Shown here in pieces: positions 1 through 16,066 of a DNA stretch of 64,000 bases. The first letter of the stretch is position 1. The number at the start of each line of letters is the position of its first letter. The stretch is taken from the NCBI GenBank assembly GCA_022566895.1, contig JADFIA010000009.1:3925-67924 (forward strand). The letters are read 5' to 3'. Both the position numbers and the translations under genes were made by a program. Below the pieces are notes generated by a model. It did not search any database. It worked only from the letters and a program-made list of their open reading frames with translations, and was not told the DNA's origin. The stretch comes from Pseudomonadota bacterium. GTDB lineage: Bacteria > Pseudomonadota > Alphaproteobacteria > Sphingomonadales > SMXR01.

Positions 1-405
1 GTCGAAGCGGCTGAATTGCCGCCCGCCGAACAGCCGATCGAGGAGCCGGTGATCGAAAAGGAAAGCCTGCCGCCGGGCCGCACCAAGTCCCCTCAGCCTC
101 CGGTGACCGGGAGCCGTGAGGAAGCGCCGGTGGAAATCGAACAGGATCCTGGCGAAACGCCGCCGCTGACCCCGAGCCGTAACCAGGGCGGCGAGGAGCC
201 GGCCGAAAATCCGCCGGCAGTGGTTGACGAGGGACAGGGGGGTGCCGTGGCGCCGGGCGGGCCGCCGGGGGCCGAAATCGAAACTCCGCCGTCCGCGAGC
301 GTGGAGGTCCCCGAGGGGGTCGGCGAGAAAAAGAAAGATGAAAAAGAAAAGGACGAAGCAGAAGAAGAGGAAGAGAAAAAAGAACCGCCACCGTTGCGAA
401 ATTGA
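1..405 (+). CDS. 3' end of an upstream gene: Pro/Glu-rich low-complexity C-terminal tail (partial)
   Basis: Frame 1 is open from base 1 to TGA at 403-405. It is acidic and Pro-rich with coding-like codons, and lies just upstream of the kinase gene on the same strand. Confidence 0.7.
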   Translation, partial: VEAAELPPAEQPIEEPVIEKESLPPGRTKSPQPPVTGSREEAPVEIEQDPGETPPLTPSRNQGGEEPAENPPAVVDEGQGGAVAPGGPPGAEIETPPSASVEVPEGVGEKKKDEKEKDEAEEEEEKKEPPPLRN

Positions 406-454
406 TTGCGGCCGGCATTGAGGCCGGCCGGATGCCGATTGAATGGAGAAAGTC

Positions 455-3373
455 ATGGCCCAGACCCATAGAGCCGCCTTGCCGGAAGGTACGCGCGTAG
501 AGGAGTTCGAGTTCCACCGGATTCTCGGGCACGGCGGCTTCGGGATCACCTATCTGGGCTGGGACCTGCATTTGGACATGGCGGTCGCGATTAAGGAATT
601 TCTGCCCACAGATCTGGTGATCCGGGAAGGCGGAATATCGGTGCTGCCCAGGACCGAAAGCGACCGCGAGGATTACGAGTGGGGCCTCGACAGGTTCCTT
701 GACGAAGCGCGCATCCTGGCTCGCTTCAAGCATCATAATATCATTCAGGTGCATCGCTTTTTCCGGGCCCATGGCACGGCCTATATCGTCATGGAGTACG
801 CCGAGGGCGAAACCCTTAGTGACCACCTGGATAGCCAGGGACCGCTTTCGCAAAGCGATATCGAGGGCATTATCTTCCCGTTGCTTGAAGGGCTGGGGAT
901 GGTGCACGGCGCCTCGTTCCTGCACCGCGACATCAAACCCGGAAATATTATCATTCGCGATGACGGTTCGCCGGTGCTCATAGATTTCGGGGCGGCCCGT
1001 CAGGCCATCGGCGTCAAATCACGCTCGGTGACCTCGATTGTTACGCCGGGATATGCGCCGATCGAGCAGTATTCGACCAAGGGCAATCAGGGTCCGTGGA
1101 CGGATATCTATGCCCTTGGAGGGGTGGCCTACAAGTGCCTCACCGGTCACGCCCCGGTCGATGCCGCCGAGCGGGTTCAGGACGACCCATTGATTGGCTG
1201 GACCAACGAGATCAGGAATGTCGAGCCGCAGTTCCTGCAGGCCATTGACTGGGCCTTGGCCTTCAAGCAGTCCGAGCGGCCGCAGTCGATTATGGAATGG
1301 CGGGCGGCACTCGAGGGGCGAACCGTGCCGGCCGGCCAGCGGACTGCCCGTGAAGATGCGGGCCGCACAGATTACGAGCCGGCCGAGCCCAAACCGCGGC
1401 GGCCAAAGAAATCCGGCGGATCAGCCACCAAGTGGATCATAAGCGGCCTGGTCGGCACCTTCGCGGCAATCCTGGTCGGTCTCTATTTGTGGATTCAGCC
1501 CGGCTCGAGAGACCTGTTGAATGAGGCCAATTTTTACCTAGAGGCCATGGGATACAATCCGGGCGCCGAGACCGAGCGCCTGACGCTACAGCTCGAAAGA
1601 GCGGTCAAGGAGTTCGAGCGCGACAATGGCCTGTTCGAAAGCGGCGATGTAGACCGGCCGCTGATTGCCCGCCTAAGGGCCAAATTCGCCGAGCTCGACA
1701 ACCAGGCCTGGAGGGCCGCGGTGGCGACCGGGACCGGGCCGGCCTATGAACAGTACAGAAGCGATTTTCCGAACGGCGCCCACGTCGGCGATGTCGAGGC
1801 GGCAATTGACGACGCCGCCTGGCGGGCCGCCCTGGCGGCCGGATCGGCGCATGAAATAGAGCATTACCAGCGCGAATTTCCCAACGGCCGGCACATCGCG
1901 GAAGCCAAGGGCGCCCTCGACGATGCGGCTTGGGCCGAAGCTGTGGCGGCGGGTAGCGAAGCGGCGCTCGAGGCGTATGCGCGTCGCTTCCCGAACGGCA
2001 GGAATATCTCGAAGGTGGCTGCGGCCAAGGACCAGATGGCCTGGCGGCGGGCCGACAGCAGCGGCACCCGGCAGGCCTATGAGGGCTACAAGGCCGCCTT
2101 TCCGAACGGCCGCTTCGTGGCCCAGGCCGATCGCCGGATCTCGGATATGGCCCAGGCAGCTCTGATCCGTTCGATTCAGACCGAGTTGCGCCGGGTCGGC
2201 CATCTGCGGTCAATTGCGGATGGGGTTTTGGGCCCCACCACGGTGGCCGCGATCAAGTCTTTCCAGGGCGAGCAAGGACTGGTTGCCGACGGCCGGGTCA
2301 CCCAGAGGCTTCTTGAACGTCTGCGCAACACGACGGTCAAGAATGTGTGGATCGTGGCCAAGGATGGTAGCGGTGACGTGAGGACCATCGGCGAGGCCCT
2401 GCGGGTCATTCCCGATGGCGGCCGCATTCGCATCAAGGCCGGGGTTTATCAGGAATCCCTGCGGCTTAACCGCACGGTCCACCTCGAGGGGATCGGTGAC
2501 CGCAACAATGTGATCGTCGAATCGAGCGGCGAGGATACCGTAGTCATCACCGGCGGTGCGGGCAGCATCACCAACATGACGCTGCGCTACGTTGGCAGCG
2601 CCAGCGGCCGTAACGTCCTCGAGATCACCGGCGGCAACTGGCTGTTGGAAGGCAACGATCTCAGAAACACCATCTCGACGGTGATTTTCATCAAAGGGGG
2701 TTCGCCGCGTTTCCGCCGCAACCGGATCCACGATTCGCCGTGGAACGGCTTTAATATCAAGAGTTCAGGTTCGATTGTCATCGAGAGCAACGAGATTTTC
2801 GCGCTCGACAATCCGGCCATCTGGATTGGCGGCTCGTCGCGTGTGACGGTGCGCAACAATACGATCTATGCCATTCCCGCGAACGGGATTTTCGTCGGCG
2901 ACGAGGCCACCGCGACGATTACCAATAACGACATAACAGGGACCGAAAAACCGGCCATCTGGGTCGGCGGAACCTCGTTCTCGACGGTCACCGGCAACCG
3001 CATCCATCATCTGCCGAGCAACGGCATATACATCGGTGAATCGGCCAGGGGAACCTTCGAAAATAACGATGTCTACTTTACCGAAAAGCCGGGAATCTGG
3101 GTTGGCGGCGACGCCGAGCCGAGGGTCATAGGCAACCGGATCCATGATGTTGAAGGCAACGGGATCAATATCCAGGGCAACGCACGCGGCGAATTCAGAA
3201 ACAACGATATCTGGAACACCGGCAACAAGGCCAAAAACTACCCGGCCGTATTTATCGGCAAGGATGCCAACGTGGTCTTTTCCGGCAACAAGATCCACGG
3301 CAACGGCAACAACCAGATCTACATGGAAGAGGGCGGCCGCAGCCTGTTGCAAAACAACGATGTCAGATCCTAG
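455..3373 (+). CDS. Membrane Ser/Thr (Hanks-type) kinase: kinase-TM-PG-binding-4x37-aa helical repeats-PG-binding-parallel beta-helix
   Basis: Kinase motifs LGHGGFGITY, VAIKE, HRDIKPGN, DFG, GYAPIEQ, DIYALG. TM WIISGLVGTFAAILVGLYLWI follows a basic patch. PG-binding-like IQTELRRVG..DGVLGPTTVAAIKSFQ..GLVADG. Pectinesterase-like cap VAKDGSGDVRTIGEAL precedes N-x-I repeats. GGAG before ATG 455; alternative start 443. Confidence 0.9.
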   Translation: MAQTHRAALPEGTRVEEFEFHRILGHGGFGITYLGWDLHLDMAVAIKEFLPTDLVIREGGISVLPRTESDREDYEWGLDRFLDEARILARFKHHNIIQVHRFFRAHGTAYIVMEYAEGETLSDHLDSQGPLSQSDIEGIIFPLLEGLGMVHGASFLHRDIKPGNIIIRDDGSPVLIDFGAARQAIGVKSRSVTSIVTPGYAPIEQYSTKGNQGPWTDIYALGGVAYKCLTGHAPVDAAERVQDDPLIGWTNEIRNVEPQFLQAIDWALAFKQSERPQSIMEWRAALEGRTVPAGQRTAREDAGRTDYEPAEPKPRRPKKSGGSATKWIISGLVGTFAAILVGLYLWIQPGSRDLLNEANFYLEAMGYNPGAETERLTLQLERAVKEFERDNGLFESGDVDRPLIARLRAKFAELDNQAWRAAVATGTGPAYEQYRSDFPNGAHVGDVEAAIDDAAWRAALAAGSAHEIEHYQREFPNGRHIAEAKGALDDAAWAEAVAAGSEAALEAYARRFPNGRNISKVAAAKDQMAWRRADSSGTRQAYEGYKAAFPNGRFVAQADRRISDMAQAALIRSIQTELRRVGHLRSIADGVLGPTTVAAIKSFQGEQGLVADGRVTQRLLERLRNTTVKNVWIVAKDGSGDVRTIGEALRVIPDGGRIRIKAGVYQESLRLNRTVHLEGIGDRNNVIVESSGEDTVVITGGAGSITNMTLRYVGSASGRNVLEITGGNWLLEGNDLRNTISTVIFIKGGSPRFRRNRIHDSPWNGFNIKSSGSIVIESNEIFALDNPAIWIGGSSRVTVRNNTIYAIPANGIFVGDEATATITNNDITGTEKPAIWVGGTSFSTVTGNRIHHLPSNGIYIGESARGTFENNDVYFTEKPGIWVGGDAEPRVIGNRIHDVEGNGINIQGNARGEFRNNDIWNTGNKAKNYPAVFIGKDANVVFSGNKIHGNGNNQIYMEEGGRSLLQNNDVRS
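1697..2140 (+). repeat. Four tandem 111-bp (37-aa) intragenic repeats, consensus DxxAWxxA....AYExY...FPNG
   Basis: Units begin DNQAW, DDAAW, DDAAW and DQMAW; each is 37 aa and contains FPNG. Confidence 0.9.
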
Positions 3374-3416
3374 GAGAATGGCGGAGTGAGCCTAAGCAAG
3401 ACGGAAACATCGGGCC

Positions 3417-5948
3417 ATGGCTGAGCATGTCCACGCGCTTCCGAGAGGCTACCGCTTCGAGGAGTACGAGGTCGTAAGAGTTCTTGGCTCGGGCGGTTTC
3501 GGCATCACCTATCTTGCCTTTGACGACAATTTGGATAAGGCGGTGGCGATCAAGGAATATCTGCCCAGCGACCTGGCGATCCGCCACGCCAGCACGGTCA
3601 TACCGCGATCTTCTTCGGACGAGAATGACTTTCAATGGGGTCTCGAGCGCTTTCTGGACGAGGCCAAGACGCTGGCCCGCTTCAAGCACGACAATATCAT
3701 TCAGGTTCACCGGTTCTTCCGGGCCCATGGCACCGCCTATATCGTCATGGAATACGCCGAAGGGGCGACCCTGAGCAAGAAGTTGGTGACCCATGGGCCG
3801 TACGGGGAATCCGAGCTCAAGGACATGCTGTTGCCAATTATCGACGGTCTGAAAAAGGTGCATGCGGCCGAGTATCTGCACCGCGACATCAAGCCGGGCA
3901 ACATTATAATTCGCGTTGACGGGACACCGGTGCTGATCGATTTTGGTGCGGCCCGCCAAGCCATCGGCGCCAGGTCGCGCTCGGTCACCTCGATCATCTC
4001 GCCCGGCTATGCGCCGATCGAACAATATGCGTCCAAGGGCAATCAGGGGGCCTGGACGGATATCTATGCGCTTGGCGCCGTGGCCTACAAATGTATCACC
4101 GGCAATACGCCGATAGATGCCGCCGAGCGGGTCCTCGAAGACGACCTGAAACCGCTGGCCGAAACAATGCCGCCGGGATATTCGGACGAATTTCTCAGGG
4201 CGATTGATGCGGCGCTCCAGGTTAATGTGAAGGACCGCCCCAAAACCTTGCGCGCGTGGAAAGCCATGTTGCTCGGACACTCCGATCTGCTGAGCTTGAC
4301 GCGCAGCCACCGGGGCCGACGGCGCAAATCCAAACCCGATCCCAGAAAAGGCGCCGGCGGCGGCATCAATTACGGGCTCATCGCGGCGGTCACCGGAGTG
4401 CTCATCGTCGGCACCGCAGGCTTCGTATACTGGCAAAAAAGCAAGATCGACAGCCCAAGGACGCCGACCGCCACAGTATCGAGCGGGACGGAAAAACCGC
4501 CCGTTATAGCCGAGACGCCGGCCCCCGAGCCGATCAACAACCTGATCAGGCCGGTTCAGGTGGCGCTGAACAAGCTCGGATATCAGGTTGCGGAATCGGG
4601 CGTTATCGACACCCGGACACAGGCGGCTATTCGCGAGTTCGAACGTCAAAACGGTCTGGTTCTGACCGGCGCCGCGGATCAGGTTCTGCTCGACGCCCTC
4701 AGCCGAGCGGTTTTGGAGCGCGATCAGGATGAAGCCGACTGGCGGCGCGCCAAGGTCAGCGATACCATTGCGGCTTATGAAAATTACAAGCGCCTTCGAT
4801 CACGAGGCGCCCACGTTGCGGACGCCGACACGCGCATCGCCGCCTTGCAGCGGGTGCGACTGATACGGGATATCCAAACCGAACTGGTGCGTCTCGGCTG
4901 GTTGCGGGGCGGTATCGACGGTGCCATGGGGCCGGCTACCGTTTCAGCCATCCAAAACTTCCAGCGCGCCGACCTTCTGACCGTCGATGGCCGGCCAAGC
5001 CAGAATCTATTGCAACGGCTTAAGGGGGCTTTGCTGCGGGCCTATGTAGTGGCCAAAGACGGCACCGGCGATTTCTCGACGATCGCCGCGGCCATCAAGG
5101 CTGCAGCGGCCGGATCCCGCATTGAAATTCACCCTGGAACCTATAGTGAATCGCTGAAAATCAGCAAGACGGTGCACTTGATAGGGGTTGGCAGCCGCAG
5201 CCAGATTATTCTTGAGACAACGGGAAGCCGGGCGATCACGATCAATAACGGTTCGGGCAGCGTAAAGAACCTGACAATCCGCTACGTCGGCACGGGCAAG
5301 AACTACTTTACAGTTCATATTGACGGCGGCACCTGGCTGATCGAAAACAACGACCTGACAAATAATAGCGAGGTTGCGGTGATTGCAGTGGCCAGTGGAA
5401 ATCCGACCGTGACCCGCAACGTCATCCACGATTTCGCCTCAGAGGGGATTTGGATACAAGCGACCTCGACCGGTAGCTATACGAACAATTCGATATACGG
5501 AGGTGGCGGCACCTTGGTGCTGGTCGAAGGGACTTCGGATCCCTTCTTTTCGGGCAACCGGTTGCATTCGGCAATAACCGCGATCGAAGTGCGGGACGAC
5601 GCTCAGGGACGATTTGAAAACAACGACATAAAGGCTCGGGTCAAGGTCCGCGATCAGGCCAAGCCAACATTCCGCAATAATGACATTCACGACGTGGAAG
5701 GCAACGCGATCAATATCAAAGGCATTGGCGGCGGCCTTTTCGAGACCAACAATGTTTACGATTCGGGCATCAAAGAGGATAAAAACTTCCCGTCCATCTG
5801 GGTGAGCAAGGAATCGACCGCCCGGTTCATCCGCAATCGGGTGTACGGCACCGGTTGGCCCGACATTTATTTGGAATGCGAAACCGTTTCCAACGAATGT
5901 CAAGTCGCAAACAAGAGTGTCTTGAGCGGCAATGATATAAGATCGTGA
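3417..5948 (+). CDS. Paralogous membrane Ser/Thr kinase: kinase-TM-PG-binding-single helical repeat-PG-binding-beta-helix
   Basis: Kinase motifs LGSGGFGITY, VAIKE, HRDIKPGN, DFG, GYAPIEQ. TM YGLIAAVTGVLIVGTAGFVYW. PG-binding-like segments VQVALNKLGY..TQAAIREFE and IQTELVRLG..TVSAIQNFQ. VAKDGTGDFSTIAAAI cap followed by beta-helix repeats. Confidence 0.9.
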   Translation: MAEHVHALPRGYRFEEYEVVRVLGSGGFGITYLAFDDNLDKAVAIKEYLPSDLAIRHASTVIPRSSSDENDFQWGLERFLDEAKTLARFKHDNIIQVHRFFRAHGTAYIVMEYAEGATLSKKLVTHGPYGESELKDMLLPIIDGLKKVHAAEYLHRDIKPGNIIIRVDGTPVLIDFGAARQAIGARSRSVTSIISPGYAPIEQYASKGNQGAWTDIYALGAVAYKCITGNTPIDAAERVLEDDLKPLAETMPPGYSDEFLRAIDAALQVNVKDRPKTLRAWKAMLLGHSDLLSLTRSHRGRRRKSKPDPRKGAGGGINYGLIAAVTGVLIVGTAGFVYWQKSKIDSPRTPTATVSSGTEKPPVIAETPAPEPINNLIRPVQVALNKLGYQVAESGVIDTRTQAAIREFERQNGLVLTGAADQVLLDALSRAVLERDQDEADWRRAKVSDTIAAYENYKRLRSRGAHVADADTRIAALQRVRLIRDIQTELVRLGWLRGGIDGAMGPATVSAIQNFQRADLLTVDGRPSQNLLQRLKGALLRAYVVAKDGTGDFSTIAAAIKAAAAGSRIEIHPGTYSESLKISKTVHLIGVGSRSQIILETTGSRAITINNGSGSVKNLTIRYVGTGKNYFTVHIDGGTWLIENNDLTNNSEVAVIAVASGNPTVTRNVIHDFASEGIWIQATSTGSYTNNSIYGGGGTLVLVEGTSDPFFSGNRLHSAITAIEVRDDAQGRFENNDIKARVKVRDQAKPTFRNNDIHDVEGNAINIKGIGGGLFETNNVYDSGIKEDKNFPSIWVSKESTARFIRNRVYGTGWPDIYLECETVSNECQVANKSVLSGNDIRS

Positions 5949-5988
5949 TGCCGGGCCGGCGAGGTGGGAATTTGGAGCAGGGACGATA

Positions 5989-7536
5989 ATGATGCACAAT
6001 TTATTCAGGGCTATTCTGGTAGCGCTTCTTTTCGCTTCAACCGGCGCTGTCGCGCATACATTTGATCCCGTCAAAGCGGCCCAAAGTATCGTCAAGGTCG
6101 TGACCTATCGGGGCGAAAATGTGTTGCGCGAGGGCACCGGTGTGGTGGTTGATGTTGGAGGTGTCGTCCTCACCAACTGGCATCTGACCGATCGCGGCGA
6201 CCGGGTGAGCGTGATCAGCCTGGTAACCGGCGCCGAATTGGCGGCCGAGATCACGGTCGAGGACGAGGATTTGGATATTGCCATCCTCAAGGTCGCCGGC
6301 TTCGGAGCGCCGCCCCTGTTTTTTAGTGCCAGACCGGCTGCCGAGGCCGACATAGTTTGGTCCTTCGGCAGCTGGGAGGGCCAAGGCCCCAGCGCTGGTG
6401 CGCTGCCCATCGATACAGCGACCGGGGCGGTCGGAACTTTGACCGAGCTGGAGATCGACCGGGATCGGACGACAAACTTCCTGATCCACAATGCGCTGAT
6501 CCTCCGTCAGGGGTACGGCGGACCCTTGGTGAATGCGTGCGGTGAAATCGTCGGCCTCAATCGGCCCGATCCGGCGCTGAGTAACCGCCGGGTCCGGCAG
6601 GGTGTCGATCCCGATCAGGCGGTCTACGCACTCACCGCGGCGACCCTGCGGGAGTTTCTGCTGGCCCACGATGTGCAACCGAATTTGGCCACCAACAACT
6701 GCCTGACCGAAAATGAAAGGGCCACCCTGAGCAAGGAACAGGCCGAGGCCGAGAAAGCCGAAGCCGAACGCTCTGCAGCGACCGCCCAAGTGGCGGCCGA
6801 AGCGGCTGAGAAGCGGGCTCAGCAGCTTGAGCGCAAGGCCCTCGAAGCCCAACTACAGGCTGAAACGTCGTCCGAAGACAAGCGGCGGGCGCAGGAAGCA
6901 GCGCGCCGGGCCCGGGCCGAGGCCCAAAGAAAGGCCATAGAGGCCAACCAGCTGCAGTCCCGGGCCGAGCAACTTGAAAGGCGAATCGGGGAGGCCGAGC
7001 AAGCCGCCAAGGTGGCCTTGGATGCCGAAGCCAAATCCCGCCGGCGCCTTTATATCGGGCTCGGCGTGGCGGCGGCGGTCATTCTTTTGCTCGGGCTGAT
7101 CAGCATGATCGTGATCAGGCGGCGTTCGCGGGCCATATCCGAGGTTGAGAGCGAAGTTGAAGCTGTCAAGGTCGAGGCCGCCATGGCCCGCGCCGAGGCC
7201 GCCGCCGCCGTGCCCTCGGTGTGGAACGATTGCCTTCTCGAAGGGGCGCCGGTCAGCCTGAAGCTTCCCGGTACCGCCATGCCGGCCGAGGTTGGCGGAG
7301 TCGTGGTCGGCCGCCATCCAAGCAGCTCAACCGTGGTGTTTGACGAGGCCTCGATTTCGCGTTCGCACGTCCGTTTCTATGCCAGCGGCGACGAAGTTTT
7401 CGTCGAGGATCTCGATTCAACGAATGGCACCATGGTCGAGGGCGAAAAGCTGGAGCCCAATACGCCGCGCAAGATTGCCGACGGCCAGACGGTTACGCTT
7501 GGCCGACACGAGTTTATTTTCAGGATTTTGAGTTAA
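5989..7536 (+). CDS. Signal peptide-trypsin-like domain (catalytic Ser absent)-long coiled coil-TM-FHA protein
   Basis: Signal peptide ending AVA. TNWH and LDIAIL are present, but RQGYGGPL replaces GNSGGPL. Ala/Glu/Arg-rich helix; TM LYIGLGVAAAVILLLGLISMIVI followed by RRRSR. FHA motifs GR..ISRSH..DLDSTNGT. Confidence 0.85.
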   Translation: MMHNLFRAILVALLFASTGAVAHTFDPVKAAQSIVKVVTYRGENVLREGTGVVVDVGGVVLTNWHLTDRGDRVSVISLVTGAELAAEITVEDEDLDIAILKVAGFGAPPLFFSARPAAEADIVWSFGSWEGQGPSAGALPIDTATGAVGTLTELEIDRDRTTNFLIHNALILRQGYGGPLVNACGEIVGLNRPDPALSNRRVRQGVDPDQAVYALTAATLREFLLAHDVQPNLATNNCLTENERATLSKEQAEAEKAEAERSAATAQVAAEAAEKRAQQLERKALEAQLQAETSSEDKRRAQEAARRARAEAQRKAIEANQLQSRAEQLERRIGEAEQAAKVALDAEAKSRRRLYIGLGVAAAVILLLGLISMIVIRRRSRAISEVESEVEAVKVEAAMARAEAAAAVPSVWNDCLLEGAPVSLKLPGTAMPAEVGGVVVGRHPSSSTVVFDEASISRSHVRFYASGDEVFVEDLDSTNGTMVEGEKLEPNTPRKIADGQTVTLGRHEFIFRILS

Positions 7537-7546
7537 GGGGACGTTC

Positions 7547-8938
7547 ATGCGCGAAACGATTGGTCGGTTCTTGATCGGTGGCGTTGCTCTTGTTGGTGCA
7601 GCGTTGCTGGTGGATGCCGGACCGGCGTCCGCCCAGGCGATCGACATAGAAAAGGTCGAGCAGGGCGTGGTGCGTGTGCGGGCGGATTTCAGCCAGGGCT
7701 ACAGCATGGGCACCGGCTTTGTTATTAATGCTCAAGGTTACATCGCCACCAATTGGCACGTCATAAGTATTGACGGCAATTTCTCCGATCGTATCTCGAT
7801 CTATCCCAGCAATTCGGCCGAGCAAATTCCGGTGCAGCGGATTTGGGCCTCGAGCGCGCTTGATCTGGCGATTCTTCGGGTTGGCAGCAATTTCGGCCGG
7901 CCCGCGGTTCCACTGGCCACGGTGCTGCCAGACAAGGGACAGGAAGTCTTTGCGCTCGGATTTCCCGGCGTCGCGGCAAATTGGGGAAGTCCACATGTGG
8001 CGACGGTGACTCGAGGAGTTTTAAGCCGGGCTATTATCGGCAGCTGGGGCCGGGGGGGTCGGTTTAGGCTGGTCCAGCATTCGGCGCAAATCAACAAGGG
8101 CAACTCTGGCGGCCCGTTGTTCGACCAATGCGGGCGGGTGATCGGGGTCAATACTCAGGGGCCGTTCATAACCGTCATCAGAAACGGCCAGCCGGTAACG
8201 ATTCCAACCGGCACCGGCGTTTTCGTGGCCTCACAAATTACCGCCTTGATCGGCGAGCTGAGGTCGCAGAATATCCCGTTTATTGAAGTGAGCAGCAGTT
8301 GTGAAGGGGCTGGCGGCCTGGGTCCGGCGGCGCTAGAGCAACTTGAAGAGACCAGGCGCAAGCTCAGTAGTACCCAGGCGGAAATTGAGCGTACCCGCCT
8401 CGAGGCCTTGCAAGCCGATGAGCGATTGGATGCCCTTATTCGCCAACTTTTCATCTGGGGGCCGATTCTCGGACTGCTTATTATCGCCGCGATCGTGCTG
8501 GCGCTGCGCAAACCCAGAGAGCGGGTCGTGCAGGTGGTCAGGGGGTACAGCGAACAGATATCGCGCCGCCTTAGCAAACCGGCCGAGAGACCCTCGCGCA
8601 GCGGCGGCCCACCGCGCTCGGGGCTTTGTTTTGCCGGCTTTGACACCAACGGTTCGCCGGTTCGCCTGACCGTGGAAGGTGGCCGGCTGGCCACCAATGC
8701 CGGGATCGTGGTCGGCCGGCATCCCGACCTGACGGATATCGTGGTTGGCGACGGCGGCGTCTCGCGCCGTCATATACGCCTACGCCGCCATGACCACCGA
8801 ATGTGGCTTGAGGATCTGAATACAACCAACGGCACGAAGCTTAACCGGCGGCCTTTGGCTCCTTTCAAGCCGGTCGAGATTCGCGCTGGTGACCAAATTG
8901 GTCTGGGCAGGATGGAGCTTTCGGTATCGCGTCTTTGA
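7547..8938 (+). CDS. Signal peptide-trypsin-like serine protease-coiled coil-TM-FHA protein
   Basis: Catalytic triad motifs TNWHV, LDLAIL, GNSGGPL. TM FIWGPILGLLIIAAIVLAL followed by RKPR. FHA motifs GR..VSRRH..DLNTTNGT. Confidence 0.9.
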   Translation: MRETIGRFLIGGVALVGAALLVDAGPASAQAIDIEKVEQGVVRVRADFSQGYSMGTGFVINAQGYIATNWHVISIDGNFSDRISIYPSNSAEQIPVQRIWASSALDLAILRVGSNFGRPAVPLATVLPDKGQEVFALGFPGVAANWGSPHVATVTRGVLSRAIIGSWGRGGRFRLVQHSAQINKGNSGGPLFDQCGRVIGVNTQGPFITVIRNGQPVTIPTGTGVFVASQITALIGELRSQNIPFIEVSSSCEGAGGLGPAALEQLEETRRKLSSTQAEIERTRLEALQADERLDALIRQLFIWGPILGLLIIAAIVLALRKPRERVVQVVRGYSEQISRRLSKPAERPSRSGGPPRSGLCFAGFDTNGSPVRLTVEGGRLATNAGIVVGRHPDLTDIVVGDGGVSRRHIRLRRHDHRMWLEDLNTTNGTKLNRRPLAPFKPVEIRAGDQIGLGRMELSVSRL

Positions 8939-8982
8939 TCCCGATCTCGGAGTGAGCTGGACGGTCGGCAAGGGGGAAAGCG

Positions 8983-10407
8983 ATGGGTTCACGATTTAAA
9001 AATCGATGGCTGGTGATGGCCGCCGGTCTGGCAGCGGCCGCCATCGGCCTCGGTCCGCGCTTGGCGCTGGCCGATGTGTTTGACGGCGAGAAAGCCGGAC
9101 AGGGCGTCGTCCGCGTGATCTCGGGCGGCAGCTGGGGCACCGGCTTTATCATCAATGATCAGGGTTATGTGATCACCAACTGGCATGTGGTTTACGATCG
9201 CAGAAACGACAGGTATGTCACGAACCTTACGGTGATCCTGAACAATACTTCGCAAGCCATATCCGTAGAGCGGATCATGGCTTCTTCCGAAATGGATTTC
9301 GCCATCCTCAGGGCCGCCGGGAGCCTTGGACCACCGCCGGTTCCGCTGGCCACGCTGACCCCGAAGCCCGGCGGCGGAGTCTATCTGGTCGGTTATCCGG
9401 CTGTCGCCAAGGCCGCCGTGGGCAGCCCGAACGTGGCTAGCACTTCAAACGGCGTTTTGAGCCGTGTCATTCCCGGAAACTGGGGCCGAGGCGGCAACTT
9501 CCCGCTGATCCAGCATACTTCGGAGGCCAACCCCGGCAACAGCGGCGGTCCGCTGTTTGATGCCTGTGGCCGGGTTATCGGAATCCACACAGCGTCGCCT
9601 AAGGTGGGGGTGGTGGAGGGAAACAGGATTATTCCGGTGCCCAGAGGCGCCGGCATATTCTTTGCTTCCCAAATCACCAACGTCGTATCCGAACTTAAAA
9701 GCCGCGGCATTCCCTTCGACGAACGCAGCGATGTCTGCGCCCCGGCGCTCGGCGGCCAAGTCAAGGATCTTGAAGCCCGGGAAAAAGCTGAGCAGGCCAG
9801 GCTCGAGGCGGCCGAGGCAAAAGCCGAAGCCGCCAGAAGCCGCATCGAGACTGCAGCCGCAAAAGCGGCGGCCAGGCAAGCCGAGGAACAGGTTCGTTCG
9901 ATGGCCAACCAGCTGCTTATCTGGGCGCCGATTTTTGCCCTATTCATGGGCCTGACTTTTCTTCTGGCGCTGCGGAAGCCGCGCCAGGTAGTGATCCGGG
10001 CCGGCCGGGAATACAGCCAGCGTATCTCGCAACGGATTCATCGATCAACCCGGCGCAGTCGAGAGCGCACCAGAATAGCGATCGACCGGGGGCTGGTCAT
10101 GTCCGGGGTCGATCCCGAGGGTCACCCGGTACGGCTGGAGATCGGGGCCCACGAGCTGCGAACGCCGGGCGGATTGGTTATTGGTCGCAGCGCCGGGCTG
10201 GTGCAATGCGTCATCGATCGCCGCACCGTCTCGGGCGCCCACGCCAGGCTCAAGGTCGACGGCGGGCGAATCCTGATTGAAGATTTGAACTCCACCAATG
10301 GCACCTGGATCAACGGCCGCCCGCTGTCACCGCGCCATCCGTCCGAGATTCGACTGGGCGATCAGATTGCCTTCGGAAAGCTGAAGCTCAATGTCTCGCA
10401 GCTATAG
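8983..10407 (+). CDS. Signal peptide-trypsin-like serine protease-coiled coil-TM-FHA protein (paralog)
   Basis: Motifs TNWHV, MDFAIL, GNSGGPL. TM LIWAPIFALFMGLTFLLAL followed by RKPR. FHA motifs GR..VSGAH..DLNSTNGT. Confidence 0.9.
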   Translation: MGSRFKNRWLVMAAGLAAAAIGLGPRLALADVFDGEKAGQGVVRVISGGSWGTGFIINDQGYVITNWHVVYDRRNDRYVTNLTVILNNTSQAISVERIMASSEMDFAILRAAGSLGPPPVPLATLTPKPGGGVYLVGYPAVAKAAVGSPNVASTSNGVLSRVIPGNWGRGGNFPLIQHTSEANPGNSGGPLFDACGRVIGIHTASPKVGVVEGNRIIPVPRGAGIFFASQITNVVSELKSRGIPFDERSDVCAPALGGQVKDLEAREKAEQARLEAAEAKAEAARSRIETAAAKAAARQAEEQVRSMANQLLIWAPIFALFMGLTFLLALRKPRQVVIRAGREYSQRISQRIHRSTRRSRERTRIAIDRGLVMSGVDPEGHPVRLEIGAHELRTPGGLVIGRSAGLVQCVIDRRTVSGAHARLKVDGGRILIEDLNSTNGTWINGRPLSPRHPSEIRLGDQIAFGKLKLNVSQL

Positions 10408-10438
10408 ACTCTGACTGAAAACCGAGAGGGGAACGGTC

Positions 10439-11917
10439 TTGGAAAAATCAATCGACAAGAAAATCATCGAAAAAATTGCCGCAATGGGCCTTCTGGCGGC
10501 GCTCATGGTCATTGTTTGGGCTTGGCCTGCGCTCGCCCAGTCCTTCGACGCCGAGACCGCGGAAAATGGCATTGTGCGGATTGTGGTCTACGATGACCCG
10601 CAAAAGTGCTGCGCCATCGGCAGCGGTTTTGTGCTCAACGATCAGGGCTTTGTGGGCACCAACTGGCACGTTGTGGCCAGCCCCGACAGTGGCGGACCCT
10701 ATGCCAATGGCTTCGTTCTGGCCAGCGGCAGCACGCAGCAGTACCCATTCTCGGTGCTGTGGATGGACGCCGAACTGGATCTGGCGATCATTCGGGTCGG
10801 CTCGGGCTTCAACCGGCCGCAACTGCCGCTGACCGACCAGTTGCCCAAAAAGGGCGGCGATGTTTTCGCCCTCGGCTTCCCCGGTGGCGCCGACCCGCGG
10901 CTTGGCGGCCCGGCGGTCGATGCCACGGTCACGGCCGGGGTGCTCGGTCGCATCTACGAGGGCACGTGGAAGGGCACCGCCGCGTTTACGGTTTTGCAGC
11001 ACAGCGCTCATACCAATCCGGGCAACTCGGGCGGCCCGCTGTTTGACGCCTGCGGACGCGTAATCGGCGTCAATACCCAGGCGGCATTGATTCGGGTGGT
11101 GAAGGCGGACGGGAGTCTGGCCCGGGTGCCGCGGGCCACCGGAATCTTCTGGTCGTCGCAAATTACCGTCCTGATGCAGAAGATGCGGGAAAACAACGTC
11201 GCCTTCCAGCCGATCACCGCGGCTTGCCAGGTCGAAACGCTGGGCAAGGACGTCGAAGCGCGCCGGCAGGCCCAAGCAGCCCAACGGCGCTTGGTTGAGC
11301 AGCAACAGGCGATCGAGCGCACCGAAGGGGTGATCCGGCAAGTCAGGGAGCAGATCGAAGAGGTCGAAATTCGGGCCGGCAAGGCCGAAGCGCGGGCCGG
11401 TGAGGCCGAAGAGAAGGTACGCTCGATCACCACCCAGCTGATCATCTGGGGACCAATTTTTGCCATCCTGCTGATCGTCACTTTCGTCCTGGCGCTCAGG
11501 AAGCCGCGTCAGCAGGCCATCCGGGTGTACAAGGAATACAGCCAGCGCGTTTCGCGGCGCGTCAACCGCCCGACCGGCGACCAGGCGGCAGCGGATAGCG
11601 GCCTCAGCCTGGCCGGCTTTGACGCCTCCGGCGACCCGGTGCGCGTCTCGATCCTGGCGGCCGACATGAGTTCCGGTGACGGCGTGATCATCGGCCGCAG
11701 TTCCGAGCTGAGCCACATCGTGATCAGCGGCCAGGGGGTCTCCAGACGCCAGGCCCGCATCAGCATCGCCCGCGGCCGGATCCTGGTCGAGGATCTCAAT
11801 TCCACCAACGGCACGTTCCTCAACGGGCGCCGGTTGTCACCCTACAAGCCGGCGGAGATACGGCCCGGCGACCAGCTCGCCTTCGGCAAAACCGAGCTGT
11901 CGGTTAACAAGCTCTAG
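10439..11917 (+). CDS. Signal peptide-trypsin-like serine protease-coiled coil-TM-FHA protein (paralog)
   Basis: Motifs TNWHV, LDLAII, GNSGGPL. TM IIWGPIFAILLIVTFVLAL followed by RKPR. FHA motifs GR..VSRRQ..DLNSTNGT. TTG start after GAGGGG; exact start uncertain. Confidence 0.9.
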   Translation: MEKSIDKKIIEKIAAMGLLAALMVIVWAWPALAQSFDAETAENGIVRIVVYDDPQKCCAIGSGFVLNDQGFVGTNWHVVASPDSGGPYANGFVLASGSTQQYPFSVLWMDAELDLAIIRVGSGFNRPQLPLTDQLPKKGGDVFALGFPGGADPRLGGPAVDATVTAGVLGRIYEGTWKGTAAFTVLQHSAHTNPGNSGGPLFDACGRVIGVNTQAALIRVVKADGSLARVPRATGIFWSSQITVLMQKMRENNVAFQPITAACQVETLGKDVEARRQAQAAQRRLVEQQQAIERTEGVIRQVREQIEEVEIRAGKAEARAGEAEEKVRSITTQLIIWGPIFAILLIVTFVLALRKPRQQAIRVYKEYSQRVSRRVNRPTGDQAAADSGLSLAGFDASGDPVRVSILAADMSSGDGVIIGRSSELSHIVISGQGVSRRQARISIARGRILVEDLNSTNGTFLNGRRLSPYKPAEIRPGDQLAFGKTELSVNKL

Positions 11918-11973
11918 GCCGGCCGCCCAGCGACGGCCCTGGAGCGCCCAGAACAAGGTATCGGGAGCTGCGG

Positions 11974-12858
11974 ATGAAAAAGAGAAACCGCGAGATAAAT
12001 GTCTTTTCGATCTCGGCCCTCGATTTGTTCGCCTCGGCCCTCGGCGCCTTCATTTTGATCATGGTCGTCCTGATGCCCTATTTCCCGAACACCGGGGATT
12101 CGGCCGAGCGGGTGGCCGAGGTCGAGGCCGAACTGGAGAAATTGAAAGCCCAGGAAGCCCAAGCCAAGAAGATCACCGAAGCCCTGAAGGGGCGACTTGA
12201 GAATCTCGAAAAGGAGAAAAACGCGCTCAAAGGCCAGGTGGAAAAGGAAGGTCAGACCCTCCGCCAGATTCGCTTACCTCATATCGATCTGGTGGTGGCC
12301 CTCGATACGACCGGCAGCATGCGCGACGAGATCGAGGGCCTCAAGGCCGAGCTGGCGAGTCTGGCCCAGATCATGACGGCGCTGACGCCATCCTTCGGCA
12401 TGGGTGTGATCGGCTTTAAGGATCGCACCGATCGGCCGGTCATATCGTCGGTGCCTTTGCGCGAGATTCGCCGCAATTCGCCGGCCTTGCACAGCCTTCA
12501 GGCCTTTGTCAACACCCTCTCGGCCGGCAGCAATCCAGTCACGAACCTGGACAACCAGGAGGCCATCGGCACCGCCCTGCGCGAAGCCATTGCCATGAAC
12601 TGGCGGCCGCGCGCGAAGCTGCGGGTGATCGTTATTCTTTCTGACCACGCGGCCTATCCGGAAGAGATTGAGATGACCCTTCAAATGGCCCGCCGGTTCA
12701 GCGCCACCGAGGGTCAGAAAATCTCCGCCGTGATGATCCGCTCGGCCGCCGATGCGGTCCAATACATGCCGCGGCTGGCCAAGGCCGGAAAGGGCACCGT
12801 TGTTCTTGGCGGCGGTTCGATCACCGCAGCCATCCTGGAGGCGCTGTTAAAAAGCTGA
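11974..12858 (+). CDS. Membrane-anchored vWA-domain protein (N-terminal TM, coiled coil, vWA)
   Basis: Basic N-terminus, then SALDLFASALGAFILIMVVL. Coiled coil. MIDAS-like DLVVALDTTGSM; further vWA-like segments WRPRAKLRVIVILSD and LAKAGKG. Confidence 0.85.
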   Translation: MKKRNREINVFSISALDLFASALGAFILIMVVLMPYFPNTGDSAERVAEVEAELEKLKAQEAQAKKITEALKGRLENLEKEKNALKGQVEKEGQTLRQIRLPHIDLVVALDTTGSMRDEIEGLKAELASLAQIMTALTPSFGMGVIGFKDRTDRPVISSVPLREIRRNSPALHSLQAFVNTLSAGSNPVTNLDNQEAIGTALREAIAMNWRPRAKLRVIVILSDHAAYPEEIEMTLQMARRFSATEGQKISAVMIRSAADAVQYMPRLAKAGKGTVVLGGGSITAAILEALLKS

Positions 12859-12879
12859 GGAAGGAGGAGCAGTACCCAA

Positions 12880-13761
12880 ATGAAACGACGCAGCCGCGAA
12901 ATCAATATTTTCTCGATCTCGGCCCTCGATATATTCGCCTCGGCCTTGGGCGCCTTTATCCTGATCTCGGTTGTGCTTTTGCCCTATTTCCCCAACACCG
13001 GCGATTCCCCCATCCGCATCAGCGCCCTGTTGCCGAAGCTCAATGAAGCGCGGGCCGAGACCGAAAAACAAAAAACCGAACAGGAATCGCTGCGCGGCGG
13101 CATCAAGGTCAAGGAAGAGGAGATCGGCAAGCTCAAAGGCCAGCTCGAAGAGCTCAAAAAGGAAGCCAAGAAGATCAAATTCCCGCACATCGATCTGGTG
13201 GTGGCCGTGGATACGACCGGCAGCATGCGCCAGGAAATCGAGGGTCTGAAGGGCGAGCTCTCGCAGCTGGCCGAGATCCTGACCGCCCTGGCGCCGTCCT
13301 TCGCCATGAGCGTCATCGGCTTTAAGGACCGCAACGATACACCGGTCATCCGCTCGGTGCCCCTGCGCCTGATCGAGAAGGGCTCGCCGGCTTCGAGGCA
13401 GCTCCAGGCCTTCGTCGACAGCCTCACGGCCGGCGGTTCGCTCAAAAACAACGATCTTCCCGAGGCCGTTCTAAGTGCCCTGCAGGCCGCGGTGAACATG
13501 TCCTGGCGCCCGAATTCTGAGTTGCGTGTTATTGTCGTGATGACCGATCATGCGGCCTATCCGGAGGAGGTTGAGATGACCCTCCGGTTGGCCCGCCGGT
13601 TTGCCTCGCGTCCGGGTCAAAGGGTCTCGGCCGTAATGATCGGTGGGGCGCCCGACGCGGCCCAATATATGCCGCGGCTGGCCAAAGCCGGAAACGGCAA
13701 GCTGGTGCGCAGCGGCGGCTCGATCACCGCCACGATTATTGAGGCCTTGCTAAAGAGTTAA
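12880..13761 (+). CDS. Membrane-anchored vWA-domain protein (paralog)
   Basis: Anchor SALDIFASALGAFILISVVL; vWA motifs DLVVAVDTTGSM, DLPEA, WRPNSELRVIVVMTD. Confidence 0.85.
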   Translation: MKRRSREINIFSISALDIFASALGAFILISVVLLPYFPNTGDSPIRISALLPKLNEARAETEKQKTEQESLRGGIKVKEEEIGKLKGQLEELKKEAKKIKFPHIDLVVAVDTTGSMRQEIEGLKGELSQLAEILTALAPSFAMSVIGFKDRNDTPVIRSVPLRLIEKGSPASRQLQAFVDSLTAGGSLKNNDLPEAVLSALQAAVNMSWRPNSELRVIVVMTDHAAYPEEVEMTLRLARRFASRPGQRVSAVMIGGAPDAAQYMPRLAKAGNGKLVRSGGSITATIIEALLKS

Positions 13762-13826
13762 TCGACGGTAACGTCGCTGAATAACTACAGGCACCGGTGC
13801 TGTAGATTCTTTCTTTGGAGCGATTT

Positions 13827-14549
13827 ATGACTTTATTTGCGAAGGATGGCCTGCCAAGCGGGGCAAGTGAGCCAGAGGCATTGGACAAACTGAACGCCAT
13901 TTTCGAAGAGATACAAGGGCGCCAATTGGACCGAATTGAAATACACGATTCGCACAAGAGTGGACGCGTATCAAAGATGACGCTTTCGCTTTCTCAAGGC
14001 TATATCAGACGATGTGTTGAATTGGCAGAAGGTTCAGCGATTCTGTGTCAACAAAGTCACTGGTTGTCCGCAATTACCGTTGCCCGTTCCCTCCTCGAAA
14101 CTATAGCGGCATACAACGAAGTCGTTCGAAAGCTACGAAATCTTATTAGGGGTGGCGATATTGATGACATCTTTGAATTCATTTCGGCCGCTGGATTCGC
14201 GACGCGGTTACCGCACTTGATTGATGTTACTGGGGAACCTGCGGTTAAAGCCCCAAACGTATTATCTCAGATTGATAATCTCAATAAGACTGATGGAAAT
14301 TCTGCCCGTAACGACTACGATTATATTTGTGAATTCACCCACCCGAATAGCTTAGGAACACTCCTGTTTTTTGGTCGTTTCGACAAGAAAAGCGGAACGA
14401 TGCATTTTTGCAGTCAGGGCTGGGATCCTGAATCAGTTGGGATTTGGGTCGCCTGGGTGTGCTCCATGCTCTTGGTAACATTGGAAAACGACAAGACGAT
14501 AGAAAAGCTTGCTCAGCAAATATCGGATATGAATGGTCGGGGGAGCTAG
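13827..14549 (+). CDS. Hypothetical helical protein, possibly DUF5677/HEPN-like; AT-richer than its flanks
   Basis: ORF of about 240 aa with GGAG before ATG 13827. Motifs ARSLLE and YDYICEFTHPN resemble RxxxE and YxxxxxxxHP patterns. Family call is tentative. Confidence 0.6.
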   Translation: MTLFAKDGLPSGASEPEALDKLNAIFEEIQGRQLDRIEIHDSHKSGRVSKMTLSLSQGYIRRCVELAEGSAILCQQSHWLSAITVARSLLETIAAYNEVVRKLRNLIRGGDIDDIFEFISAAGFATRLPHLIDVTGEPAVKAPNVLSQIDNLNKTDGNSARNDYDYICEFTHPNSLGTLLFFGRFDKKSGTMHFCSQGWDPESVGIWVAWVCSMLLVTLENDKTIEKLAQQISDMNGRGS

Positions 14550-15730: not shown

Positions 15731-16066
15731 GACACTAGGATCGTCGATCGAGCCCCTGCTCACCGCCCTGGTCCGAACGGCCTCATTATAATGCGGCCTA
15801 GCCGCAAGATGGCCCGGGGGGGTCGGTCTTCCTGGCCCTCCTGTTCAGCCTTGCCGGGGCCTATATTCCTCTCGGCGCGCCGTGGTTTCCTTGGCCCAAC
15901 GAGCGGGCGGAATAGGGCGGCGCCGGGTGAAGCGACCGGTCGAGCCGAAAAAGTCGCCAAAAATTGAATGGCCAAGCGGTGCCCTATCATTCACAGTCTG
16001 TTCAGCTTTGATGTGCAAAACTCCAGGGCGTAATCGCAAAAGCGGTTGCGGAAGCGGGGATTCGTG

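Follow-up and report, generated by a model that had tools for sequence, protein, structure and literature searches.

A conserved operon joining receptor kinases, FHA proteins and protease arms with a predicted TolQ-like membrane motor

The twelve-gene operon and its products

The stretch analyzed here, hereafter the window, comprises 64,000 nucleotides of a Pseudomonadota genome assembly (Alphaproteobacteria, Sphingomonadales; GCA_022566895.1, genome G000) and corresponds to positions 3925–67924 of contig JADFIA010000009.1 (C60). Eight complete open reading frames (ORFs) occupy window positions 443–13761, all on the + strand, and form the rear part of a conserved 12-gene operon. Its first genes lie on the same strand outside the window, starting 3 kb upstream in the order FHA1, A, FHA2 and PP2C. 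The original prediction, made from the window alone, had described eight complete co-directional genes with gaps of 10–56 bp behind a partial gene, and both the ORFs and the Pfam matches bear this out: counted from the partial gene, the gaps measure 37, 43, 40, 10, 44, 31, 56 and 21 bp, and the encoded proteins comprise two kinase/PG_binding_1/β-helix, four trypsin/FHA and two vWA proteins. The partial gene does belong to this unit, being the tail of PP2C, but three further operon genes upstream (FHA, MotA/ExbB-like and FHA) had escaped that description. In the list below, A denotes the MotA/TolQ/ExbB-like subunit, B1 and B2 its predicted axles, T1–T4 the arms and K1 and K2 the kinases; C60 coordinates refer to the contig and all others to the window, and membrane topologies are predicted.

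C60:955–1401, +, FHA1, FHA adaptor, upstream of the window
C60:1405–2190, +, A, MotA/TolQ/ExbB-like protein of 262 aa, upstream of the window
C60:about 2204–2878, +, FHA2, Thr-rich scaffold, upstream of the window
C60:2875–4329 (3' end at window 1–405), +, PP2C, membrane Ser/Thr phosphatase with a cytoplasmic PP2C domain, a transmembrane (TM) helix at 309–327 and a Pro/Glu-rich periplasmic tail
443–3373, +, K1, receptor Ser/Thr kinase of 976 aa with an intact RD kinase domain, TM helix 331–349, two PG_binding_1 domains, repeats and a β-helix
3417–5948, +, K2, receptor Ser/Thr kinase of 843 aa with the layout of K1
5989–7536, +, T1, arm of 515 aa with a signal peptide, a dead trypsin domain, a long coiled stalk, TM helix 358–376 and a cytoplasmic FHA domain
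7547–8938, +, T2, arm of 463 aa with an HtrA-like trypsin domain (His71-Asp106-Ser187 intact) without PDZ, TM helix 301–319 and FHA
8983–10407, +, T3, arm of 474 aa with an intact triad, TM helix 311–329 and FHA
10439–11917, +, T4, arm of 492 aa with an intact triad, TM helix 334–352 and FHA
11974–12858, +, B1, putative axle of 294 aa with a probable trans-pore helix containing Asp17, a coiled stalk and a periplasmic vWA head
12880–13761, +, B2, putative axle of 293 aa with helix 14–36 containing Asp17, helix 44–98 and an integrin-β-like vWA head

Paralog identity amounts to 48% between K1 and K2 (483 columns), 42–44% among T2, T3 and T4, 25–29% between T1 and the other arms and 61% between B1 and B2; identities of 25–61% rule out an assembly duplication. 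The 2:4:2 grouping noted in the original prediction holds within the window but reflects local expansion: L051, whose arrangement resembles it most, has two kinases, two trypsin arms and two axles. Contigs of three other studies (marine sediment and marine runs) cover all 30 bins and show a few differences per kb, the longer ones with just an in-frame insertion within the operon. One run bridges the MotA-like gene to PP2C and PP2C to K2, and no single contig spans the whole stretch. Short scattered pieces at the locus from a run guessed to be RNA say nothing on expression, promoter and terminator scans of the locus performed no better than shuffles, and no NCBIfam model above cut-off provided a whole-protein name for the operon proteins.

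Both kinases keep the Gly loop, the VAIK Lys, HRD and DFG, and PP2C keeps its metal motifs. A TM helix was found in 36 of 41 related kinases, most misses being incomplete sequences. Their ectodomains vary, with PG-binding and β-helix domains here and FGE-like, Sel1, PEGA, ankyrin, WD40 and PDZ/PAN domains elsewhere. Two orphan receptor kinases occur in the same genome (C30:1–3347, −; C39:80514–83930, −); they are 43–51% identical to K1/K2 over the first 470–590 residues and, by eye, continue into long helical repeats and a propeller-like C-terminus. All five FHA matches found in this genome lie inside the operon, and the orphan kinases are likely extra inputs into its FHA module.

Hydropathy and flanking Lys/Arg counts place the kinase and FHA domains on the cytoplasmic side, as the original prediction had proposed. 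Each arm has an N-terminal hydrophobic stretch and one TM helix followed by four Lys/Arg residues (the stretch of T3 falls under the hydropathy threshold and reads as a signal peptide), and a Cys pair, likely a disulfide, is present in 33 of 33 trypsin-arm proteins. The signal stretch, the TM helix with its four basic residues and the Cys pair all fit a trypsin domain outside and an FHA domain inside.

All four arms combine trypsin and FHA domains, as had been described, but not all four are proteases: T2–T4 have His-Asp-Ser, whereas T1 has Tyr at the position of the catalytic Ser and is therefore a pseudoprotease. Judged by catalytic residues, the 33 arm trypsins across related loci divide into 13 live, 19 dead and one incomplete. 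An HtrA/DegP-type His-Asp-Ser trypsin is thus present in three of the four window arms, with a stalk, TM helix and FHA domain in place of a C-terminal PDZ, and matches of the arms to HtrA-type models stayed under cut-off. Other arm types occur in related loci, including M4 peptidase arms beside PP2C-propeptide fusions and, by eye, vWA in place of trypsin in L107, L108 and L110. Trypsin is absent throughout one sub-lineage (L061, L063, L064, L067, L069, L070, L084 and L111), which keeps kinase, FHA and motor. In six loci, a PP2C with a thermolysin propeptide (FTP) motif adjoins a PepSY/M4 peptidase-FHA gene (L012:5320–9222, L018:3216–7107, L022:15303–19395, L031:1668–5847, L040:1005–4806 and L042:15522–19602; FTP match in 5 of 6), and the L012 pair also adjoins an FHA-FHA-ABC transporter. 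This PP2C-FTP is a propeptide split off its protease and fused to a phosphatase.

A TolQ-like channel with predicted vWA axles

A matched PF01618 above the cut-off (E = 4.7e-10), and its structural model reached a pLDDT (predicted local distance difference test) score of 87.6. All 26 listed Foldseek rows were TolQ, ExbB, PomA, MotA or ZorA, with a best E value of just 4.7e-3, and fold comparison gave VIA Z scores of 12.0–9.4, among them ExbB (12.0; root-mean-square deviation 4.0, 210 aligned), ZorA (11.2) and TolQ (11.1), values that are modest for a protein made of helices. Residues P171, G174, G177, T178, T218 and T219 are invariant in 29 of 29 aligned relatives (29 of the 120 matches listed). 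The lumen threonines T178, T218 and T219 sit on the last two TM helices and resemble, by eye, channel motifs of a TolQ/ExbB-like protein encoded separately in this genome, which also has a separate MotA-like gene.

The B proteins open with basic residues and an N-terminal helix in which all 38 sequences (36 of the 120 matches listed, plus B1 and B2) keep Asp17, and their N-terminus gives a weak match to the ZorB N-terminus. Given this basic N-terminus and the helix with its invariant Asp17, B1 and B2 most likely form the axle in a 5:2 motor. The original prediction had treated them as plain membrane vWA proteins; their N-terminal helix is most likely an ExbD/MotB-like trans-pore helix rather than a plain anchor. 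In the B2 model (pLDDT 83.8), helix 14–36 is followed by a 55-residue stalk and the vWA head. The attributes of 5:2 motors such as MotAB, ExbBD and TolQR (A-subunit family, lumen threonines and a single-TM B subunit with a conserved Asp) are all present, and the operon very probably encodes a proton-driven membrane motor.

By profile and by fold, the closest PDB matches of the B2 head are integrin β I domains (top Foldseek E = 1.9e-9). Specifically, the head carries D111-x-T-x-S115, D150, N190-x-D-x-P-E195, W209-R210 and D223, of which D111, S115, D150, E195 and D223 are invariant (38 of 38) and N190 nearly so (37 of 38), and its metal-site residues align with integrin beta-8, as in an integrin beta-I-like vWA domain. 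We take these sites (D-x-S/T-x-S, Y/F-x-D, N-x-D-x-P-E and T/S-D) to be the metal-ion-dependent adhesion site (MIDAS) and the synergistic metal-binding site (SyMBS). The stalks measure 50–120 residues, so that the heads would stay in the periplasm. In one lineage (L018–L020), an alpha-2-macroglobulin gene directly follows an axle with a DUF2135/YfaP-like head (L018:11591–18246), an arrangement presumably recalling the yfa operon. A 393-aa protein (P0109), either a fusion or a read-through artefact, continues from axle and vWA into an FHA1-like domain.

TolQ-like rings with axles of a trans-pore helix and a vWA domain (TPH-vWA) were predicted in 2025 (Mol Biol Evol, PMC12204202, section 8 and Fig. 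4c-d; this and the other papers are cited for the parts available to us), where such TM-vWA helices are predicted to insert into the pentamer and no function is given. The motor described here shares a TolQ-like gene without tolR/exbD, a heterologous TM-vWA pair with Asp, lumen threonines and the lack of SHLS, and by these stated features is a member of the TPH-vWA motors. Unlike the motors as described there, it is embedded in a kinase/PP2C/FHA/protease operon, apart from the PEGA-FGE-linked clade; kinases and FHA are not mentioned in the main text of that paper, and its supplement text gave no match to FHA or serine protease. In common with ExbBD-TonB, TolQR-TolA and MotAB (reviewed in PMC9389320) are the family and fold of A and the single-helix B with Asp, whereas the B head is vWA or DUF2135-like instead of ExbD/TolR/OmpA, a TonB/TolA-type arm is missing and phospho-signalling genes are attached. 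The available parts of PMC12505986 and PMC9389320 do not mention vWA axles. The statement of the original prediction that no characterized system has such an architecture therefore needs dividing: the motor core was already predicted (PMC12204202), and the kinase-coupled form was not found in the open-access literature searched. Neither the whole system nor any 5:2 ion motor under Ser/Thr phosphorylation control was found described there, subscription journals being mostly outside the scope of the search.

Conservation and possible phosphothreonine wiring

The A family comprises 2875 matches. We pooled 95 A loci (80 metagenome loci of 530 candidates, 13 genome regions, one Rhizobium plasmid and the upstream piece of this genome); clustering at 85% identity gave 52 clusters, 44 of them close (>45% identical to A) and seven distant (30–38%). 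Among the 16 close clusters with at least 5 kb on each side, axle genes were found in 16, FHA in 15, kinase in 13, trypsin in 11 and PP2C in 10; FHA1 was found in 39 of the 44 and, in the majority of close loci, lies immediately upstream of A. The distant clusters have axle pairs but none of the four signalling types (0 of 7) and are placed behind a PEGA-FGE gene and two unknown genes. Their operon (L094–L103, L115–L124) consists of two conserved genes (~420 and ~490 aa, no Pfam match), PEGA-FGE, A and two TPH-vWA genes, with no kinases.

As a held-out set we used every one of the 19 further matches found among 400 evenly sampled class genomes, nine of these matches being close and ten distant. 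The close loci, several on short contigs, had FHA in eight, kinase in five, PP2C in five, trypsin in two and an axle within the fetched stretch in four, and axle genes were present somewhere in all five held-out genomes checked. All ten distant loci had the PEGA-FGE block, and none of the ten had signalling genes. Among 400 evenly sampled phylum genomes there were ten matches, all distant, which indicates that the kinase-linked form is patchy. Co-occurrence of the gene types in other genomes, on which the original prediction depended, is thus seen in both the well-covered clusters and the held-out loci. Its grouping of kinase, protease and vWA as a triad with protease activation as output fared less well, since the MotA/TolQ-like channel and the axle are the most constant partners. 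The constant core consists of kinase, FHA1, A and B, and sensors, arms and heads vary.

The kinase-linked and PEGA-FGE-linked clades are about 30–38% identical. In a tree of A with long, unstable outgroups, the PEGA-FGE group splits off on a long branch (89/93), and support is weak (54/69) for a branch that sets the kinase group on one side. The names of close relatives include Sphingomonadales and Gammaproteobacteria metagenome-assembled genomes, SAR86, Pseudomonas sp. and Rhizobium; a cultured carrier exists, with the locus on a Rhizobium leguminosarum plasmid. A GTDB-wide scan with B1 alone, a search that was too strict, returned two unrelated vWA matches. In G476, G627, G582 and G740, several axle genes lie on contigs other than that of A, some with heads unmatched by the vWA profile.

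Candidate phosphothreonine docking motifs for the FHA domains, as the original prediction would have it, do exist. The N-terminal linker of FHA2 is disordered and contains two threonines that are conserved (32 of 34 and 31 of 34), and the motif [DE]-x-x-T-x-hydrophobic, a pattern chosen after viewing these same sequences, occurs 59 times in FHA2 linkers against 12.7 ± 3.4 in 1000 shuffles (maximum 26). It is spread over 31 of 36 linkers, and its Ser version is not enriched (14 versus 12.9). In the sub-lineage lacking FHA2, a D-x-P-P-T-x-R-hydrophobic form appears, by eye, in the juxtamembrane linkers of the kinases. The C-terminal end of FHA1 carries an invariant R-x(3)-T-G hairpin-like motif, and a similar one starts FHA2 in 21 of 36 sequences.

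A predicted complex of three A copies with FHA1 reached an ipSAE of 0.33 against 0.10 for the best control, with contact agreement between runs of at least 52% and partner pLDDT of at least 65; 116 of 157 solved pairs and 2 of 215 mismatched ones cleared this mark, at ≤0.60 just 18 solved pairs and both mismatches. Unless a contact is likely beforehand, passes at such scores are wrong more often than they are right, and this job is unlike the calibration set. The model gives weak support to the predicted docking of FHA1 on A. We consider it probable that the motor is under physical control of the kinase/FHA module.

Upstream, the operon is bounded by tRNA-Lys(CTT) (L001:269–342, −) and a small, divergent HAD/NIF-like phosphatase ORF (L001:363–890, −). 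Past 13761 the GC content falls to 0.47, and genes from 13815 onward are not among the conserved neighbors of related loci. Right behind the operon lies a 244-aa ORF (window 13815–14549, +; GC 0.47) with a weak DUF5677 match, probably a separate acquisition; a lipoprotein-like S8 subtilase with, by eye, a long β-rich C-terminal region follows 2.3 kb downstream (window 16046–18451, +) and is no conserved neighbor.

Proposed mechanism, alternatives and meaning

In the T6SS (type VI secretion system), the membrane Hanks kinase PpkA, the PP2C PppA and the FHA scaffold Fha respond to an envelope cue by switching on a trans-envelope machine. The operon shares this wiring of kinase, PP2C and FHA scaffold, and differs in that the machine is an ion motor. 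VipB/TssC was not found in this genome (86% complete) or in five other carriers (81–96% complete), T6SS core genes were not seen in related loci, and TerD was not found in this genome; the original prediction had likewise noted no T6SS or ter gene in the window. TerY-phosphorylation triads consist of a cytoplasmic TerY-type vWA protein with kinase and PP2C near ter genes; here, the vWA domain follows a TM helix with its N-terminus inside. Zorya combines a ZorA with a long cytoplasmic tail, a ZorB with a peptidoglycan-binding domain and ZorC/D/E effectors. As in ZorAB, the motor is a stand-alone 5:2 type of patchy distribution, but A measures 262 aa, the B head is vWA, ZorA/ZorB matches were weak and partial, and no ZorC/D/E occurs among the 12 operon proteins. 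The available parts of PMC7159879 and PMC8195603, on Aravind-type ternary conflict systems, do not mention MotA/ExbB/TolQ, and a defense-island setting was not evident from PADLOC on neighboring ORFs (no control set), its matches to the operon kinases and proteases being generic domains.

Myxococcus Agl-Glt (PMC11761067) comes closest as an analogy for an FHA-TM arm sitting on a TolQ-like ring; it likewise has a TolQR-like motor, two different B subunits, a TM-adjacent FHA arm predicted to sit on the ring and a vWA adhesin. Here, by contrast, the FHA arms carry proteases, the vWA domain is part of the axle by fusion, kinase and phosphatase are dedicated ones and no Glt outer-membrane platform was seen; only the FHA part matches GltG, and conserved neighbors of the GltG/GltJ type with a periplasmic TonB-C domain, or of the Glt platform, are lacking. 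By analogy, the predicted system would combine the working of a 5:2 motor with the wiring of the T6SS phosphorylation switch. It is not a member of the T6SS, TerY-phosphorylation, Zorya or Agl-Glt systems, and a ternary conflict system of the Aravind type was rejected as well.

We favor, with a probability of about 0.5, a 5:2 motor assembled by phosphothreonine, with an integrin-like head, acting on envelope proteins through protease arms. Starting from the genes, domains, catalytic and channel residues, linkage and Thr motif enrichment, its steps may be sketched as follows. K1 and K2, and probably both orphan paralogs, would autophosphorylate on binding an external cue from the cell wall or a polymer. 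They would then phosphorylate the [DE]-x-x-T-x-hydrophobic sites in the FHA2 linker, Thr62 and Thr94 in the 236-aa reading, or, where FHA2 is missing, sites in the linker of the kinase itself. FHA1 and T1–T4 would bind these phospho-sites through their FHA domains, which would gather the arms at the cytoplasmic face of the ring, much as GltG is predicted to sit on AglR in Agl-Glt. The TolQ/ExbB-like A ring would turn around the B1/B2 axle in a proton-driven 5:2 arrangement; ion flow past Asp17 would move the axle, and the vWA heads might take hold of a periplasmic or outer-membrane protein by an acidic residue and then pull or present that protein. Live arms would cut the gripped protein, dead arms would bind only, and PP2C would reset the system. 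The resulting role, signal-triggered removal or remodelling of envelope proteins, is the weakest step, and we see it as evenly balanced between right and wrong.

Several observations weigh against this reading. A designed helical bundle scored Z 11.0 against A, tied with the motors, and a PDB sequence search with the A profile returned no motor subunit. The same loci had supplied the training sequences of the linkage hidden Markov models, and related loci do not count as independent. PP2C, like trypsin, is lacking in about one-third of well-covered loci, the close-clade genome G568 (L114) has A and B with no kinase or FHA within 10 kb on each side, and the L108 axle gene lies outside the locus, elsewhere in the genome. 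Of the axles, 13 of 84 carry a different, weakly DUF2135-like head (regex sorting left 32 of 84 unclassified). The 19 dead arms among 33 are often the sole arm seen in their locus, arm TM helices lack the SHLS/His motif of the TolA/TonB type, and no conserved outer-membrane partner was found in related loci.

Among the alternatives, a Zorya-like sensor would reverse the direction of signalling: vWA heads would anchor the axle, damage or an invader would open the channel, and the turning ring would signal inward to the kinases and FHA proteins for a defense or stress response. The high rank of ZorA among the folds of A (Z 11.2), weak PADLOC matches to ZorA/ZorB, the patchy spread (9 of 400 class genomes), the highly variable kinase ectodomains and the tRNA-Lys beside the window locus agree with it. 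We nonetheless regard it as unlikely, given that A has no long tail at 262 aa, B lacks an OmpA-type domain, the operon contains no ZorC/D/E, nuclease or other effector, and the kinases own outside sensor domains. At 1e-10, PADLOC matched 10 of 125 neighboring ORFs (22 loci, no control set), mostly generic, with defense-like genes in two loci.

That the motor moves or retracts surface adhesins under kinase control, or attacks attached cells, is improbable. Agl-Glt does join a TolQR-like motor, the FHA-TM arm GltG and a vWA adhesin (PMC11761067, PMC12204202), and the axle head here is integrin-like; stalks of 50–120 residues would, however, keep the heads periplasmic, and the loci contain no conserved TonB-C, TPR or outer-membrane barrel partner.

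We give little credence to the model of the original prediction, in which receptor kinases cluster FHA tails to switch on periplasmic proteases and the motor is incidental. Three window arms have intact triads, the predicted topology fits, and in at least five loci a PP2C with the propeptide motif beside an M4 protease-FHA gene ties phosphatase to protease. Yet motor genes are more constant than proteases (16 versus 11 of 16), and protease activity can hardly be the defining output when 19 of 33 arms are dead, M4 peptidase or (by eye, in three loci) vWA replaces trypsin, and the whole trypsin-free sub-lineage (L061, L111 and the others listed above) has kinase, FHA and motor without it. Most improbable is a motor and a phospho-signalling cassette that are co-regulated and share nothing but an operon: the sister clade runs without kinases and G568 without local ones, gene order is shuffled and axle genes are sometimes elsewhere, but FHA1, present in 39 of 44 close clusters, mostly adjoins A, signalling genes are interleaved with both motor genes, and an FHA1-A contact is weakly predicted.

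On the favored reading of a phosphothreonine-assembled motor, the operon could tentatively represent a bacterial machine of a new class, a rotary motor gated by receptor kinases, with an integrin-β-like, force-bearing axle head and swappable sensors, heads and protease arms, although we consider this step doubtful. TPH-vWA motors were predicted without a known function; because the operon offers a switch, candidate phospho-sites and candidate outputs, that function becomes directly testable by point mutants of Asp17, Thr62/Thr94, the catalytic Ser and the MIDAS Asp. If true, the system would be a phosphothreonine-switched, proton-powered means to grip, pull and cut in the ATP-free periplasm. 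It would also be a bacterial example of a motor driving an integrin-type domain, which would be under mechanical load, and show how energy-requiring proteolysis or pulling could run in the periplasm.

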